From contig OX597825.1 of assembly GCA_951406725.2 (NCBI GenBank), positions 51,336,001-51,400,000 on the forward strand: 64,000 bases of DNA, given 5' to 3'. Both the position numbers and the translations under genes were made by a program. Shown one piece after another: positions 5,325-39,300 of this stretch; the stretch's first letter is position 1, and the number at the start of each line of letters is the position of its first letter. The notes under the pieces are model-generated. The model did not search any database and was not told the origin of the DNA. It saw only the letters and a list, made by a program, of their open reading frames with translations. The stretch is from Octopus vulgaris. Taxonomy: Eukaryota.

Positions 5325-6149
5325 ATTAATTACTGACTTCACCGAATCCACCGGATATATACCTAAAGTAGATTTACCAAGACAACTGCTGCCTAATTGA
5401 CAAATGTTCTCTTTTGTAAAACTAATAACACCGAAATGATGAATATTCTTTCAATTTTCATTCTATCATCCTTACTGCTACTACTACTGTTACTGTTTCT
5501 TTTGCTGACAATACTGCTGCTGCTGATGATGATGCTACTGCTTCTGTTAGTGCTTCGACTTTCTGTTGCCATACGGTACATCTATCTTCTTTCTTTCATT
5601 CTTTCTTTCTCTTATATCATTATCTCCCTTTTTGTTCATTTTGGGTACCAGCAGAAAATAGTGTTGTCCAGAATTTTACCATATCAGTTTTACAAACGGG
5701 CGGCAAGCGCATATATTCCACTTTTGCAGTGTTTATGTAAAACGGATGGCTGTTTATAACTTGATACGTTCACCTCTACATCTGAAACTTTATATACAAT
5801 ACTCCATATGGCAACCGTATTTTTGTACCGGATTCTCCATAAATTTTCTTTTCTTTTTGTTTTTCGATTTCTTACGTCACTCCCTAAAACACCATCAATG
5901 CTTTTGGCTAAAACCTTGACTATATAAACTCTAATCCCAGGCAGTCCCAACTAACCCTTATTGTATCTCTCTTCTATGCTATGAATGTCAAGAAATTAAA
6001 AATTAGCCGAATAAACACGTTGTTCTTAACATAACCCCTCTTTTATGGGGTTATGTTGAAAAGATGACATTATTTACAGCTGAACAATTTTCATGTCTTC
6101 AATAACTGAACAATTGACATACATCGAAATATATTTTGATATATGTCAA

Positions 6150-14009: not shown

Positions 14010-14150
14010 AAGTGTTAAATTCCGTTCAGGTCGACTTTGCTTTTCATCTTGGCGAGGTTAACAAAATAAATGCCACTTGACTCCTGGGGTCGATATATTC
14101 GACTTACCACTCCCGTGTAATTGCTAGCCTTGTGCCAAAATTTGAAAACA
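14010..14150 (+). mobile_element. SINE family A, 5'-truncated
   Basis: GGTCGACTTTGCTTTTCATC..CTGGGGTCGAT..CCTTGTGCCAAAATTTGAAA. Confidence 0.75.
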
Positions 14151-14691
14151 ATATTAAAGCAATTGTTGAAACGGGACGAAATACTTAGCTTTAAATTCCA
14201 GCAGAATTAAATAAATATATGTCTACTTCATATATTTATAATTGTTTTAGTCATCCTCATTTTGTCCCAACTTTACAAATCATGACCATACGATTAAAAT
14301 GTTGCTTCATAATAACGTGGTTTCAGGTTCGGTCTTATTACATGGCACCTTTGGAAATTATATTTTATTATACAGGGCGACCAATCAATGAAGCTATGTA
14401 AAGACGTAAACCGAATAAATTTGCTTCAGGCTCATTTCTTGCTTGTCACTCCCCATTTAACTCGTTCTGATGACAACATATATATCAACTTTTTAGTTTC
14501 GGATGAACTCACTATCTTAATCCTCTTTTCAATAGTGTAACAACCTAGTTTCTTCATCCCATCCATCTTCCTGTTTCGGTGGCATGAAAAAGACAGGTGG
14601 TTGAACGTTCTTCCATTGAAAAGAGAACAAATAAGTCGCTACAACTTCATGTAGCCTGAGATTTTCATTTCATTTGAGTTTGAGTCCATGC

Positions 14692-17600
14692 TCAGGCCAA
14701 GTCAAAGACTCCACCCTCAGAGTCTGGTGTGGTTGCCAGGTTGTATTCTCTGTTTAATTTTGACATGTGTAGGAGCGAGTTTGAGTCAGTTTGTGCTCGT
14801 TGTGTATATCCTGGGAGATGGGGCTCATCTCTAATGGTGCTTAAGTATCTATCCAGCTGCAATTTGAATGATTCCACACTGCATCCTGATAGATTTCTGA
14901 CATGTACCGGAATGGAGTTGAATAGTTGTGCTCCTCGAACCAACAGACTTGATTATCGCAGGGTTTTTGCTGCCTGGCCAGCCTTTTTGTTGATTGGTGG
15001 TAGCTGGCAGCGTCTTCCGTGGCGGAGTGAGTGGTAGGTTTTGATACCAAAGTTTGGCACCTTTTGCTCTATCATTTTCCAAATGTATATAATTCGGTAT
15101 CGCTCAAATCTTCTTTCTATTGAGTACATCCTCAAGGTTTTGAGTCTTTGCCAATAGTCCAGGTCCCTCGTTTCTGAGAAATATGAGGTAACATTTCTTT
15201 GGAGCGATTCCATCTTAGATAGTTGGCCCTTTGTTGTTGGTGACCACAACTGAGAACAGTAGTCAATCCTTGGAAGTATCATACTGTTCCAGAGGGTTTT
15301 CATTGTTGAGGTATCTCTTGATTTGAAGGTGCGCAAGATCCACCCGCTGTACTTTCTTGCAGTAAGACAGACTGAGTCAAGGTGTTCTCTGAATTTTAGG
15401 TTGGTTCCCATGTGGATGCCTAAATCTTTCACATACTGTTTTTCCATTATTTGTTGTCCTGGTGGGTTTCTGTAGTTTGTTGTATTTTTCAGATCTTGAT
15501 CAGTTCCGTAGCGAATTAGTTCAAAGTTCTTATCATTGAACAACATGTTGTTTGTTTCCTGCCATTTATATATGGTGGTCAGGTCCTTTTGTAAGGCCTC
15601 TGTATCCACCTCGTCTTTGATTTGTCTCATGACCCTGGTGTCATCAGCAAAGGATGAGACATTGCTGGTTGTATCTTCATCTATGTCAGAGATGAGGATG
15701 AGAAACAGGATTGGGCCGAGTACTGTACCCTGAGGAACACTGCTGGTCACAGGTGATGGTGTTGAATGGGTTCCATTCACAGTGACTGTTTGAGTTCTAT
15801 TTGTAAGGAACTCATGTATCCATGTACCAACTTTTCCTCCTACTCCTAGCTTTCGAAGTTTGTGACCCAGGATGCCATGATCTACCTTGTCAAATGCCTT
15901 GGCAAAGTCGAGGTAAATAACATCTGTGTTGTATCCATTCTCTAGATTTTCTAGGATTTGGTCATGGTGTGCCAGTAGTTGGGAAAGACATGATCTACCT
16001 AACCTGAATCCATGCTGGTTGCAATTCATCAGATTGTTGGATTCCAGGAACTCAACCAGTTTTCCACGAACTATTCTTTCGAAGACCTTGATAATGTGTG
16101 ATGTCAGTGAGATTGGTCGGTAGTTCTTTGGTTTTGATTTGCTGTCCCCTTTATGTATTGGAGTTATGTGTGCTTCTTTATATGTATTTGGTATTTTGCC
16201 ATTCTCCATAGATTCCCTCCATATCATGTAAAGGGGTTTCAACAATTGTACCTTGCAGTTTTTAAGTATCATGGCATTGAAACCGTCAGGCCCCGCAGCC
16301 GAGTGCATGGAGAGCTTGTCTATGGCTCTTTCTATGTCCTCTGGGTTGAAATCAATGTCGGATAGGGTAGGTTTAGTATGGTCGATATCCTTGAAGAATT
16401 TTCCTGGGTCATGGATCTTCATGGTTTTAGATGGCTCACTGAAGACACTTTCATACTGTTGACCCAACATTTCTGCCATTTCAAAAGGGTTATTCACTAC
16501 ATCCCCATTTTGTCTCTGGAGAGGTCCTATTGTTGACTTGGTATTCGAGTATTTCTTTGCAAAACTGTAGAAACATTTTGGATTTTTCTTGATGTTTTCT
16601 ATGGCTCTCTTTTCTGCATTGTTACGTTCTTCATCATAGTGTTGTTTTAGATTGTCTTCTAATCTGTATATTTGGTCAAGGACTTTCTGTAATTCATGTT
16701 TTGATGTCAGCTTAGATGTTTTGTTTCTTAGTCTTGACCTTTTGCGCATCAGGATCTTTCGCTCCCGTGGTACAGGTTTTTTTGTGGACTTGGTTTTCTT
16801 TAGAGGAATATTTTCTGCACATATTTCTTCGATCTTGTTTAAGAATTTCTTGTGTTTATCTGGCCCAGTAAGGTAGAGATCCCAGTCAATGATTTGTAAC
16901 TGGTTGTTAATAGTTTCCCAATTTGCCTGGTGATAATCATACCTGCATAGCTTTGGCATATCCTTTTGTTTAAGAGTTGTGACATTGGGCTCATTACCAA
17001 TGTGTAAATGCATTTCAATAATATTGTGGTCTGAAAGGATTGTTGGGGTTGAGTGAAGGTCAAATAGCGTGTCCTCGTTGTTGGTGAAAACCAAGTCGAT
17101 CGTATTATTATTTCTTGTTGCTTCTGTCATCATTTGTTTGAGGTATAATTTCTCTGTGACTTCCAACAGTTTGGCTGCCAGTATTTGTTCAGCTTTTGTC
17201 CCCAGTTTTAGTATGTGTCCATGTGGCCAGATGATGTTAGGGAAGTTGAAGTCACCAAGGAGGATAATGTCTGGCATTGGACTCGCCATGTTTCCCAGAA
17301 TTTGTTGGAGCTTTGTTAGTGGTTCAGTGAAGGATAATGTTGGGCTGTTTGGCGGTCTGTACATTATTGTTACAACTGTATTAAGTTGGATGATTTTTAT
17401 GCACAGCAGGTTGCAGTAGCCATTTGATTCATTGACAAGTTCTATGCATGCATAGGTATCATGGATATACATGATAACGCCCCCATGGGATCTACCTTGT
17501 CTATCACATCTGAAGATGTTGAATCTATTGATTGTGATTTCGCTGTTGCGGATGTTTTCGTTGAGATGACTTTCAGTAATTCCAATTATTTTGGAGTTGT

Positions 17601-17904
17601 TTTCTGTTGCTAATTCTTCCAAGAGAGGGACTTTACACTGTTTTGTTTTCGGATAAAGACCCTGGATATTTGCTGTTATTATGCTTGTTGTACCGGATAC
17701 ATCTGCCCTATTGTTGGCAAGACTGTTGTAGTTGCTGGGACTGTGCTGACTGGATATTCGGTCTGCTGGGCTGTCTGTATTTGTTGTATGTGCCCTGTAA
17801 GCCCAGGTGTCAGCCTTTGTATCAATGTTGCCTGGTTTTGCTGAGTCGTCTGTATGGAGTACAGCTGTTGTTGTAGTTGGTAGATTATGCCTAAAAAACT
17901 GCTT
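14692..17904 (-). CDS. LINE ORF2: APE endonuclease plus reverse transcriptase, interrupted by one premature TAA at 14955-14953
   Basis: APE motifs ANIQGL, ITESHL, YRPP, GDFN, IDLVF, SDH. RT motifs YRPISLTS, QHGFR, YLDFAKAFDKVDH, VPQGTVLGP, FADD, KDLG. The 889-aa and 83-aa track ORFs share one frame (TLR*SSLLVRGAQLFN). The frame is open upstream to a TGA at 17907-17905 with no ATG before the APE domain. Confidence 0.92.
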
Positions 17905-17987
17905 TCATTCATTACTATATCGAATTTCTGCGAGTTTGGGTTTGTTACAGCTGATGTATGCAATTGAGTAGCATGATTTTCATTCAC
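17679..17987 (-). CDS. 3' part of LINE ORF1 (Q/T-rich C-terminus), truncated by the 5' end of the insertion
   Basis: Open frame ..SSFLGIIYQLQQQL..MYPVQQA* overlapping the ORF2 frame by about 225 nt. Confidence 0.65.
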   Translation of the reverse strand: MNENHATQLHTSAVTNPNSQKFDIVMNESSFLGIIYQLQQQLYSIQTTQQNQATLIQRLTPGLTGHIQQIQTAQQTEYPVSTVPATTTVLPTIGQMYPVQQA

Positions 17988-19312
17988 TGTTGAGCCACTT
18001 ACTTTATAAATGAGATTACTTTATAAATGATAGCAATGTATCTAAGGAAGGAAAATTAATTTGTAGGGTATCTCTTCTCATTTCATCTTTTCCATTGATA
18101 ACTACTACGACATACTGATTTACTATTTACTGAATTAGCTTCTGAGCTTTGCCTACCCAGGTCTGAGACACGGAACATCACTAGAGGAGACATTGTAAAC
18201 CTTCAACACTTAACTTCGTAAACAGAAACAATTCTAAATCAATTACATATTTTTATATTTCATTAATTGTTTCGAAATATTTGTGATAAAATTATGTATT
18301 GTCATTAACATTGTATTTGGCATTCGCAGACAAAGTGAGACAAGCTGTAAGGGAAAATCCTTTGGCTTTCCATTATAGCAAACTATCTAACGTAAAACAA
18401 ATTGTTAACGCTTGATTTATATTTTTGTCACCTGACACGGAATCGTATAAAAACATTTCTCTATGTGTGTGTTTGTTTCTTTTTTTCATTTCGAAACTTC
18501 CTAAAAGCATAAAATATTCTTTGTTGTAAACCAGTTTTATTTTCGTTCATAATAGCATTCTTCTTAAATTTATTGCAAATGACTTACACACCCCTGCTTC
18601 TGTTGAAATAATTTCAATAAATTAACAAATATAACAAGTTATTTCCGAACGTTCCGACGCTCTTCTAGAAATTGTGTCGTATATAGTATTTTGTATAAAT
18701 TTTCAGTCGTTGGCTTGTGTTTCCCTTTAGCAATTGAACAGACACAAGGAATGATGGTGAATGGGTATACATGAAATTATATTATTAAAATATTGTATAA
18801 AAATGTATTATGAATAATGTGTCACCTGGCCAGTCTCTCTTTCTTTCAAATATTAGTATTTACCTGTCTGCTTATAGCTCATGCTGATTTATTTCTCAAT
18901 TTGCTCCGAGAAATATCAATGATTTAAATGCCCTATATCGCTGGGGTTGGCAAATTTACAACTGTCTACAAATGAGAAACCTCAGCCTTTCAAGCAAGCA
19001 ATATAGCAAAATATAAAAACAGAGTATTATATTTCATTTCAGATATAATTTAAAGTGACATCCGAGAAGCAAATATTTTGTAAATAAAAGTGTTTCATGT
19101 CATTTGGTATATTCCTTTTGTAGTTATAACGAAGAAATCTATGGCTGTTGGGTTGAAAAGTGAAATGGCAATTTTGGACAATTTATAAAAATATGGTCGA
19201 ATCTGACCTCGAACCATTTAAGGTTAATCAAATTTGTAATAGTTTAACATTAGTAACACTAATGTGTCATCGAAGCCTGTGCACTAAAATAATGACTTAT
19301 ACATGTGTATAT

Positions 19313-19414: not shown

Positions 19415-19800
19415 TTCGGTTGGCAGAAATGTTAGCACGCCGGGCGAAATGCGTAGCCGTATTTCGTCTTCCTTTACGTTCTGTGTTCAAATTCCGCCGA
19501 GGTCGACTTTGCCTTTCATCGTTTCGGGGTCGATTAAATAAGTACCAGTTACGCACTGGGGTCGATATAATCGACTTAATCCGTTTGTCTGTCTTTGTTT
19601 CTTCTCTCTGTGTTTAGCCCCTTGTGGGTAGTAAAGAAATAGGTATTTCGTCTGTCTGTTTTCAAATTCCACGGAAGTTGACGTTGCCTTACATCGTTTC
19701 GAGGTCGACAAAATAAGTGCTATTTGAACACTAGTGTTGGTAGTGGTGGTGGTGGTGGGGGGTGATGTAATCGACTTAGCTCATACCCACAAAATTTAAA
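19415..19800 (+). mobile_element. SINE family A, well-preserved copy followed by a second partial copy
   Basis: A-box-like TGGCAGAAATGTTAGC, B-box GTTCAAATTCC, core GGTCGACTTTGCCTTTCATC..GGGGTCGAT..AGTACCAG; core repeated from about 19641. Confidence 0.88.
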
Positions 19801-36814: not shown

Positions 36815-37995
36815 ATTACATCCAACACCTCCACCATTCTCCGTCTAGCAAGTGCTTTGCGTCCACCGGGGAAATTTACCAATAGATGTCTGGGTCGCTG
36901 TGGAAATGAGAATGTGCCCTAATTTCGCCAACCTATTTGGTGGTCATATTGAGGCCTTAGTATTTTCCCAGTTTTCCGAACCGACACTAGAGCTATACGG
37001 CCGCTATATAGATGACTGTATAGGCGCTACCTCCCTCTTCCGCGAGCAACACTGTCATTTCATCCCTTTCCTCTCTAACTTTTACTCTTCTCACCAATTT
37101 ACCTCTACCATCTCTAACACCTCGATTCACTTCCTAGATATCTCTCTTACCATTGACCTCCACCTCTCACCAACTCCGCCTTCGTCACATCCCTCTCACA
37201 CCAAACGGGCCATCCCCTATTCCCAGTTCCTCCGCCTCCGACGCTTGTGCAGCCGGGACCAGGATTTCGAGACCCAGCCCCAATACCTTGCCCACCTTTT
37301 CATGCATCGAGGATGCTCTCAACCCTTGTCCAAACCGCCCTTGTCCGCGCTCGTCTAATCAATCGCACCACCTCTCCTTCCTCACACCAATCTCCTAACT
37401 TCACCCTTCCCCTCATTTTCCACCCCTCCACCCTACCCCTTCGTTGGAGGATCCTACAGGCTTTCCGTTGTCTCCAGCTAAACCCCACCACCCACACCAT
37501 TTTCCCTACCCACCCTTGTCCTCCTTTAACTGCGCCCGTAACTGACGCGATCTTCTGATCAGTAGCACCTTCTTTTCTTCCCCCCAGCCCCACCCGGATC
37601 ATTCTCTTGCTCTAGATCCCGCTTCCACACTTGCCCTTTTGTCAACAACACTTCCCGCACTGAATCCAACCAACACACTCTCCACATTAGAAACTCCTTC
37701 TCCTCACCTCTTCAAGCCTTATCTATTGCGTTAGACGTAATATCTGCAATAAACTCTACGTTGGTCAAACGGGCCGCCAGCTGGCCGACCGGTTCACTAA
37801 ACATCTACAAGATGAACATTCCCATCACTTGTCATTTCCGCTTGACCAAACAATCCACCTCTAATATCACAGTTTTTGGCCTCGCCCTGCACCATCGATC
37901 CACAAAAATCTCGACTCCGCCTGGAACAGCTTTACATTTTCAGTCTACAAACACAAACTCCTTCGGACTCAACACAACACCCTCCTCTTAACGAT
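36815..37995 (+). mobile_element. Penelope-like element relic (RT plus GIY-YIG endonuclease), 5'-truncated and frameshifted
   Basis: PNFANLF, YGRYIDDCIGA, FLDI, SHPSHTKRAIPYSQFLRLRRLCS, LPLIFHP, LIYCVR..CNKLYVGQTGRQLADRFTKHL. Confidence 0.92.
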
Positions 37996-38279: not shown

Positions 38280-39300
38280 GCACCCATACATAAACACACG
38301 TACATATATACACACACACTCACAAGTATACACACGAGCAATCACATGAGCGCACATATGCCTCCCACACATACAACACACATGCACACAACACACATAC
38401 ATGCACTCACACACACATACACATGCACACACACACATACGCGCAGACACACACGCTCGCACACAGCAACGTACATATACCTCCACACACACAACCCCAC
38501 GCATACACTCACATACACACGCGCTCCTACATACACACCACACATGCAAGCACGCGCGCACACATGAATGCACATATACCTCCCCCACACACACACACAA
38601 CACGCACACGCACACACACACGAACATATACACACACGCACAGGAATGTACACATAACCAACGCACACAAGCCACACATACATACACACGTCTACATACA
38701 CACACACACGCACATATACACGCACGCACGTGCACACAACTACACGCATATACACACATTCGCACACACACTTACGCTCGTATATGCACAAAAACGCACA
38801 TAATTCCAAACAGAACCCCACGTACACACACATATACACACGCACACACACACAAGCACACAGACATATACACACGCATATACATACACACACGCACACA
38901 CATATACATACGCACCACACACAACCCAACGTACACACGCACATACACACACACACTTGCGAATAGACATATACACATGCACACACATACACACATACGC
39001 ACATGAACGCACACGTACCTCCCACACACAACTCACACTCATACATACAAGCACACTTACATGGGCATGCACACACGCACATACACACACGCACATACAC
39101 GCACACAACTGCACGCACACATGTGCACACAGACAGGAACGCACATATAACTCCACACACACACACCCACGCACACACATATAGACACACACGCACATAC
39201 ACAAACATACACGCACATACACGCACACACTCACACATGCACACACACGCACACACTACACTCAAAACACACATACAACATATACATACACGCACACATA
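38280..39300. repeat. ~1-kb degenerate (CA)-rich simple-sequence tract
   Basis: Imperfect CA/CG/TA dinucleotide mosaic; source of the C/V- and H/T-rich ORFs. Confidence 0.95.

Follow-up and report, generated by a model that had tools for sequence, protein, structure and literature searches.

An invariant U UUU UUA heptamer at the ORF1–ORF2 junction of an octopus LINE lineage points to −1 frameshifting into an AUG-less ORF2

How the second open reading frame (ORF2) of a two-ORF LINE comes to be translated is a long-standing question, and the few experimental answers, those for L1, SART1 and Zorro3, all involve initiation. The Dictyostelium elements TRE5-A and TRE3-A are APE-type LINEs of the L1-like lineage. 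A figure legend in a review states that both need a −1 frameshift for ORF2 (PMC5911963). According to PMC2881922, ORF2 translation in SART1 and L1 depends on ORF1, and PMC1965478 states that Zorro3 ORF2 requires its ATG. SART1 uses UAAUG coupling and L1 AUG-independent reinitiation. Among viruses, U_UUU_UUA is given as the HIV shift site in PMC5009743, where the G residues 3′ of it are said to matter; the earlier note had named it as the HIV-1 gag-pol heptamer, and had given reinitiation or translational coupling as the route to ORF2 in well-studied LINEs. The same review describes alphavirus stimulators as diverse, with Semliki Forest virus lacking intra-mRNA pairing, and its 6K/TF is thus a precedent for a shift site without a hairpin.

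The LINE described here, from Octopus vulgaris, shares with HIV-1 gag-pol the heptamer, a downstream frame in −1 and the missing AUG. It differs from HIV-1 and the alphaviruses in that the host is a non-LTR retrotransposon (APE plus reverse transcriptase), in having no conserved hairpin and in an ORF1 that continues for 64–222 codons beyond the shift site. It resembles TRE5-A and TRE3-A as an APE-type LINE with a −1 ORF2, but belongs to a different host kingdom, and its site is kept across deeply diverged families, whereas the legend gives no heptamer for the Dictyostelium elements. SART1 and L1 are also two-ORF LINEs with ORF1-dependent ORF2 translation, but make a separate ORF2 protein near the ORF1 stop, whereas the long overlap and invariant slippery site here point to a fusion. 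Types III and V of Metcalfe and Casane, within the CR1 group, are alike in carrying a PHD in ORF1, APE and reverse transcriptase domains and a tandem-repeat tail; in their main text, neither PMC4120745 nor PMC13343379 mentions a frameshift, an overlap or CCCH fingers for such elements, nor the PHD plus three-CCCH type of ORF1 found here. The single-ORF RTE element from octopus brain, described in PMC9115989, is a different element. Our search of published full texts, a scope that mostly leaves out subscription and older papers and the Repbase reports, where overlaps may be mentioned, returned no −1 frameshifting for CR1-group elements; the recoding mechanism proposed here is a known one, in a LINE lineage for which we could not find an earlier description of it.

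The window is the whole 64-kb stretch of DNA that was analysed. The LINE and its parts, all on the minus strand, are as follows.

18011..18017, minus strand: candidate target-site duplication AATCTCA, 5′ copy (tentative)
17679..17997, minus strand: 3′ end of ORF1, with the F-L motif, a short helix-like stretch and a Q/T/P-rich tail; stop TAA at 17681-17679
17905..17907, minus strand: TGA bounding the −1 frame upstream
17892..17898, minus strand: U UUU UUA, the slippery heptamer, in phase with ORF1; the next base is a G (17891)
17671..17898, minus strand: −1-frame linker of 76 codons, rich in T/S/N/P/A (55%), without Met, overlapping the ORF1 tail
17017..17679, minus strand: APE endonuclease domain of ORF2 (Pfam PF03372, aa 76-293; PF14529, aa 178-296)
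15529..16152, minus strand: reverse transcriptase domain of ORF2 (Pfam PF00078, aa 585-792, E 1.3e-28)
14953..14955, minus strand: stop inside ORF2, where the related loci L004, L006, L009 and L010 are open; outside read coverage
14664..14691, minus strand: very short 3′ end with a tandem-repeat tail (CTCAAA x2, TGAAA x2) and no poly(A)
14657..14663, minus strand: candidate target-site duplication AATCTCA, 3′ copy (by eye, tentative)

The element, at ~17997-14664 on the minus strand, is a young LINE copy whose 5′ truncation point, by comparison with read contigs, is 17997; there is no second copy in the 64-kb window, and its proteins are 98–99% identical to Octopus vulgaris records. Its ORF2 frame comprises 983 codons (17904-14956) and spans the APE and reverse transcriptase domains, and a Pfam search of ORF2 found no protease, RNase H or integrase. 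The homologous C-terminus extends to a TGA at 14694-14692, and the stop at 14955-14953 is probably specific to this copy; because of that stop and the 5′ truncation at 17997, the copy in the window could not itself make the fusion proposed below. Tandem-repeat tails, not poly(A), also end L004, L006 and L010. A tail of short tandem repeats in place of poly(A) is a feature of the CR1 group, to which the element probably belongs by its motifs. Within that group, poly(A) is described as unique to Zenon in PMC13343379. Thirteen extra bases (18010-17998) at the 5′ junction (17998-18030, minus strand) repeat adjacent flank, and this junction recurs in the contigs from three of four runs, which carry the labels of three organisms. 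Elsewhere in the window lie repeats (~19420-19700 and 14010-14110) that resemble octopus SINE copies, a 169-codon frame on the plus strand (36849-37358) that, by eye, resembles a decayed Penelope/DIRS-type reverse transcriptase fragment, and a long degenerate (CA)n array (38366-39298), which accounts for a GC-skew step in the window.

Full-length ORF1 is represented by the 407-residue protein P0001, with a PHD-like cysteine pattern and three CCCH motifs. The Pfam matches for both types of domain fall below the cut-off (PF00628, PHD, at E 0.031, with a weak match in 12 of 17 relatives), and the PHD-like cysteine pattern is nearly invariant among relatives, which number 2,250 clusters at E ≤ 0.001. 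Residues ~270-306 form a 17-residue tandem repeat whose copy number varies among O. vulgaris records.

At the junction the minus strand reads AGC AGT TTT TTA GGC, so that the heptamer T TTT TTA (17898-17892) stands in the X XXY YYZ phase with respect to ORF1, which is open from 18020 to 17682 and ends in the TAA. The −1 frame is that of ORF2; it opens after the TGA at 17907-17905 and reaches the endonuclease, whose ANIQGL motif has its Asn at 17670-17668, with no stop and with no ATG between 17904 and 17500, the ATG at 17702 belonging to the ORF1 frame. The heptamer, its phase, the TGA and the open, ATG-less −1 frame are as the earlier note had described them, and the ~225-nt stretch open in both frames is likewise present, but as evidence in this copy it is weak: when the Q/T-rich ORF1 tail was shuffled synonymously 20,000 times, the −1 frame stayed open for at least 75 codons in 65% of cases, and the overlap, being expected by chance, was dropped as an argument by itself for the window copy. 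A second in-phase heptamer, C CCA AAC at 17940-17934, lies upstream of the TGA and was rejected as a shift site because a slipped ribosome would terminate at 17905.

Contigs assembled from reads of four DNA-type runs agree with 17550-17997 except at four substitution sites and show no indel there; they are much deeper than the flank and continue upstream past the truncation of the window copy. Those of four RNA-type runs are also free of indels over the junction, where their RNA-type status is a guess and contigs drop rare forms and do not show expression. Because the contigs of all eight runs show substitutions only, the heptamer, its phase and the lack of an AUG are features of the family, and no in-frame AUG stands before the APE domain in the family read contigs. 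The idea that a TAATG stop-start had been masked by mutation in the window copy was rejected, the family contigs being unchanged at that place.

Related loci were gathered by scanning metagenomes once for a peptide pattern of the ORF1 N-terminus, the junction playing no part in the selection. Of the 15 loci obtained, 12 reach the site (L002, L013 and L015 either fall short of it or do not show it) and 11 of these 12 carry xxT TTT TTA G, in answer to the earlier note's call for conservation of the heptamer and its phase. Together with the window this gives 12 sites, each with exactly six T and encoding F-L. The sole miss, L014, is without the heptamer and is not followed by an ORF2, and we read both it and L012 as decayed copies from their appearance. 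ORF1 identity among the heptamer-bearing loci is 28–60%, and the ORF2 proteins of L004, L006, L009 and L010, which fall on a branch separate from the window in a quick tree of unlabelled relatives only, are 40–43% identical to that of the window.

The conservation is of nucleotides beyond what the protein would need. The joint chance of the heptamer codons in 11 sequences, given their own codon usage, is 10^-18, a figure that assumes independence and is weakened by shared ancestry, and these ORFs contain 31 other F-L pairs, none of which uses the same codons. As controls, TTA accounts for two of the 30 codons at the invariant Leu-Leu in RIQNLLP, and FHPK has its Phe encoded by TTC in three cases and by TTT in two. 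At the protein level, 147 ORF1 tails were examined and 129 scored, 18 being dropped for want of a CCCH anchor or a 60-residue tail; an F-L pair was present in 124 of the 129, compared with 28 (maximum 39) in shuffled tails, at a median of 78 residues before the ORF1 stop. Residues that have no U-ending codon (E, K, Q, M or W) precede the F in one of the 124, compared with 25% nearby, and hydrophobic columns near the F-L vary freely among L/I/V/M/F.

Downstream of the heptamer, the −1 frame is open as far as the APE motif in nine of 11 relatives, over 72–223 codons, and synonymous shuffles keep it open at P = 0.0007–0.25 in those nine; 5′ of the heptamer it meets a stop every 8–17 codons on average. 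Of the other two, L011 is open to the contig end and has an ORF1 stop upstream, and L012 is broken. The window and six of the nine relatives have no in-frame Met on the way from the heptamer to the APE motif; L003, L004 (as UAAUG) and L005 have one. The −1 stop close upstream, whose conservation the earlier note had proposed to check, did not hold up: it lies 0 codons upstream in three of 11 and 2–48 in the rest, with a background of 11–21% for ≤1 codon, and a stop hugging the heptamer was accordingly dropped as a conserved feature.

Two protein clusters touch on the fused form. P0192 runs D-F-F-R-S-T-T-P-P and is compatible with the −1 reading of the P0174 tail at 41 of 60 positions, where shuffles average 17.5 and reach 29 at most; it gives an independent view of another family in which the −1 frame is open from this site. 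A fused architecture does occur, since P0023 (1160 residues, three members) has CCCH, APE and reverse transcriptase in one frame, and it is possibly a natural single-ORF form. P0021-P0024 and P0026 make up a related branch, in which P0023 has its CCCH in frame with the endonuclease and lacks the F-L motif. A search for long fused ORF1 forms, which is a weak test, returned only the gene model P0003, and scans of viral contigs and bacterial genomes contained no relatives.

The conserved junction is thus confirmed as real, and is probably functional to judge from its pattern of conservation. Frameshifting is the simplest account because an invariant in-phase heptamer heads a long open −1 frame into an AUG-less enzyme, and we think it very probable, from these comparisons, that the AUG-less ORF2 is translated by programmed −1 frameshifting at the conserved U UUU UUA to give an ORF1–ORF2 fusion. 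The retroviral-style fusion proposed in the earlier note is supported in this respect by the heptamer and phase in 11 of 12 loci and by the AUG-less family contigs. Most ribosomes would stay in frame 0 and complete an ORF1 protein with its helix-like stretch and Q/P-rich tail, and a minority would slip at the Phe-Leu pair, the tRNAs re-pairing from UUU UUA to UUU UUU, and continue as S-F-L-R-H-N-L-P... through a 76-residue, presumably flexible, linker into the endonuclease. The predicted fusion would join the PHD and CCCH fingers of ORF1 to endonuclease and reverse transcriptase, and the ORF1 protein would be kept in excess over it, as Gag is over Gag-Pol. The comparisons show the sequence, its phase, its conservation and the missing AUG; the slippage by ribosomes, its frequency and the role of the fusion as the active enzyme are what we infer from them.

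What might stimulate such a shift was sought both near the site and at the 3′ end. The window has no strong local hairpin at the usual spacing, as previously noted, only the short stem CTGTA/TACAG at about +28, and its 3′ structure is unexceptional (z = 1.02, −0.07 and 0.00 for 92, 122 and 57 nt). Stems begin at +7 to +9 after the heptamer in seven of ten relatives, four with a CCGCC/GGCGG hairpin 7–8 nt downstream and three with other stems; the window, L007, L008 and L012 have no downstream stem, and across the 11 there is no hairpin covariation (151 of 500 shuffles score as high). A CCGCCUC-like motif is present at +8 to +15 after the heptamer in L001, L003-L006 and L009-L011, with its synonymous codons fixed (Arg as CGC/CGT in eight of eight, the next Leu as CTC in seven of eight), and could be a sequence-level stimulator or a protein-binding site.

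With regard to the 3′ end, L004 gives the clearest result: the 25 nt that directly follow the heptamer (1923-1947) pair with 5635-5667, in the last 55 nt of ORF2, in a duplex of −32.7 kcal/mol that none of 300 shuffles equalled, that was best in both scan directions and that ranked 1 of 95 in the reverse control, or ninth by net energy. This duplex competes with the local hairpin of L004. L009 (23 of 300 shuffles as good, rank 6) and L010 (7 of 300, rank 16) came first in one scan direction only, the pairing in L006 is not beyond chance (66 of 300, rank 17 of 95) and L012 has none near its 3′ end. For the window, the shift-site flank and 3′ end give −11.3 kcal/mol, not among the top five windows, with 34 of 300 shuffles as good, and the reverse control places it 40th of 63; a long-range 3′-end stimulator is not supported for its family. 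A broader proposal is that throughout the PHD-CCCH lineage of animal LINEs (the 2,250 clusters) the enzyme arises solely as an ORF1–ORF2 fusion of the Gag-Pol kind. The stimulus for the slip would then come from 3′-end pairing 3.5 kb away, clear in L004, or from the CCCH fingers of the ORF1 protein on the RNA, and not from a hairpin nearby; this we put forward tentatively, regarding it as unlikely on the present comparisons.

The main rival to frameshifting is splicing, with T6-AG as the 3′ splice site of an intron in phase 2, 146 or 197 nt long to judge from protein sequences, whose removal would join ORF1 in frame to ORF2. The AG is a real alternative, as the earlier note suspected, for it is used by two O. 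vulgaris gene models, P0003 (CAI9731129.1) and P0044 (CAI9714779.1), which pass from the ORF1 repeat directly into HNLPTT; gene models take the 17-residue ORF1 repeat as the splice donor. A G follows the heptamer in 12 of 12 DNA sites, all of which end in AG, and in 108 of the 124 proteins the residue after F-L is of the class with G-starting codons. Against this stand 14 proteins in which the residue after F-L has a codon that cannot begin with G, a run that is always exactly six T and never C, where T6-AG occurs at one of 52 other Y6-AG sites, and a fixed ORF1 phase that splicing leaves unexplained. Of the features of a U2-type 3′ splice site, a pyrimidine tract is missing upstream (0.25–0.55 in 20 nt) and spliced contigs were not found, where contigs can hide rare forms: those of the four RNA-type runs (three studies, RNA being a guess), two of them ~3 kb long across the junction, are unspliced, with neither a joint nor a loose end at the site. 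LINEs mostly copy the RNA that made their ORF2 protein, and intron-less copies would therefore be expected under splicing; the DNA contigs keep even low-depth truncation junctions, at 17871, 17844 and 17701, and none at 17891. Splicing fits worse than frameshifting on these grounds, and we regard it as highly improbable.

Termination–reinitiation, as in L1 or SART1, would have the ribosome finish ORF1 and begin again close to its stop in the frame of ORF2, using a non-AUG codon in elements that lack an AUG. The ORF1 stop does lie close to the APE motif, 1–9 codons ahead of it in the window and in eight of nine relatives (23 in L001), L004 has its UAAUG stop-start, L003 and L005 have an in-frame Met, and PMC2881922 describes SART1 and L1 as translating ORF2 in dependence on ORF1, with the L1 ORF2 AUG dispensable according to PMC1965478 and PMC5009743. 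The position of the stop, however, stems partly from linker composition, frame 0 being open in 2–44% of synonymous linker shuffles in nine of ten sequences (0.07% in L004), and seven of the ten, counting the window, lack a Met. A restart explains neither why the heptamer is invariant nor why the −1 frame is kept open over 72–223 codons upstream, and we hold it to be very unlikely in place of frameshifting, with which it may coexist, adding to ORF2 output. That the F-L is kept for protein function, as the start of an amphipathic helix, with a slippery look due to chance, fits the helix-like pattern after it, the S/D/N before it, which are typical helix caps, and the chance expectation of the window overlap, but is largely refuted, and has next to no probability, in view of synonymous codons fixed at 12 of 12 for TTT, for TTA and for the preceding T, mixed codons at other invariant Leu and Phe residues and the 0/31 of the control pairs. 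Slippage by RNA polymerase II, adding a U in the T run to give a fused mRNA, would suit P0192, which resembles a copy with an extra base in that run, but is scarcely credible when the run is exactly six T, never extended, in 12 of 12 sites and the contigs of eight runs show no indel, since an enzyme made from such RNA should presumably have led T7 copies to spread.

A slippery site of retroviral type that stays invariant throughout a large lineage of invertebrate LINEs offers a different, and directly testable, answer to the question of ORF2 translation. If it is correct, the predicted enzyme changes to one of ORF1 zinc fingers, endonuclease and reverse transcriptase together, the ratio of ORF1 to ORF2 protein would have a mechanism, and the tendency of gene callers to miss the ORF2 start or to place an intron at the junction would be explained; the lineage would also provide many natural, diverged cassettes for the study of frameshift stimulators. 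Should the more tentative proposal of fusion-only synthesis stimulated from the 3′ end or by the fingers also hold, only intact RNAs would yield reverse transcriptase, and the fused fingers would tether the reverse transcriptase to its own template.
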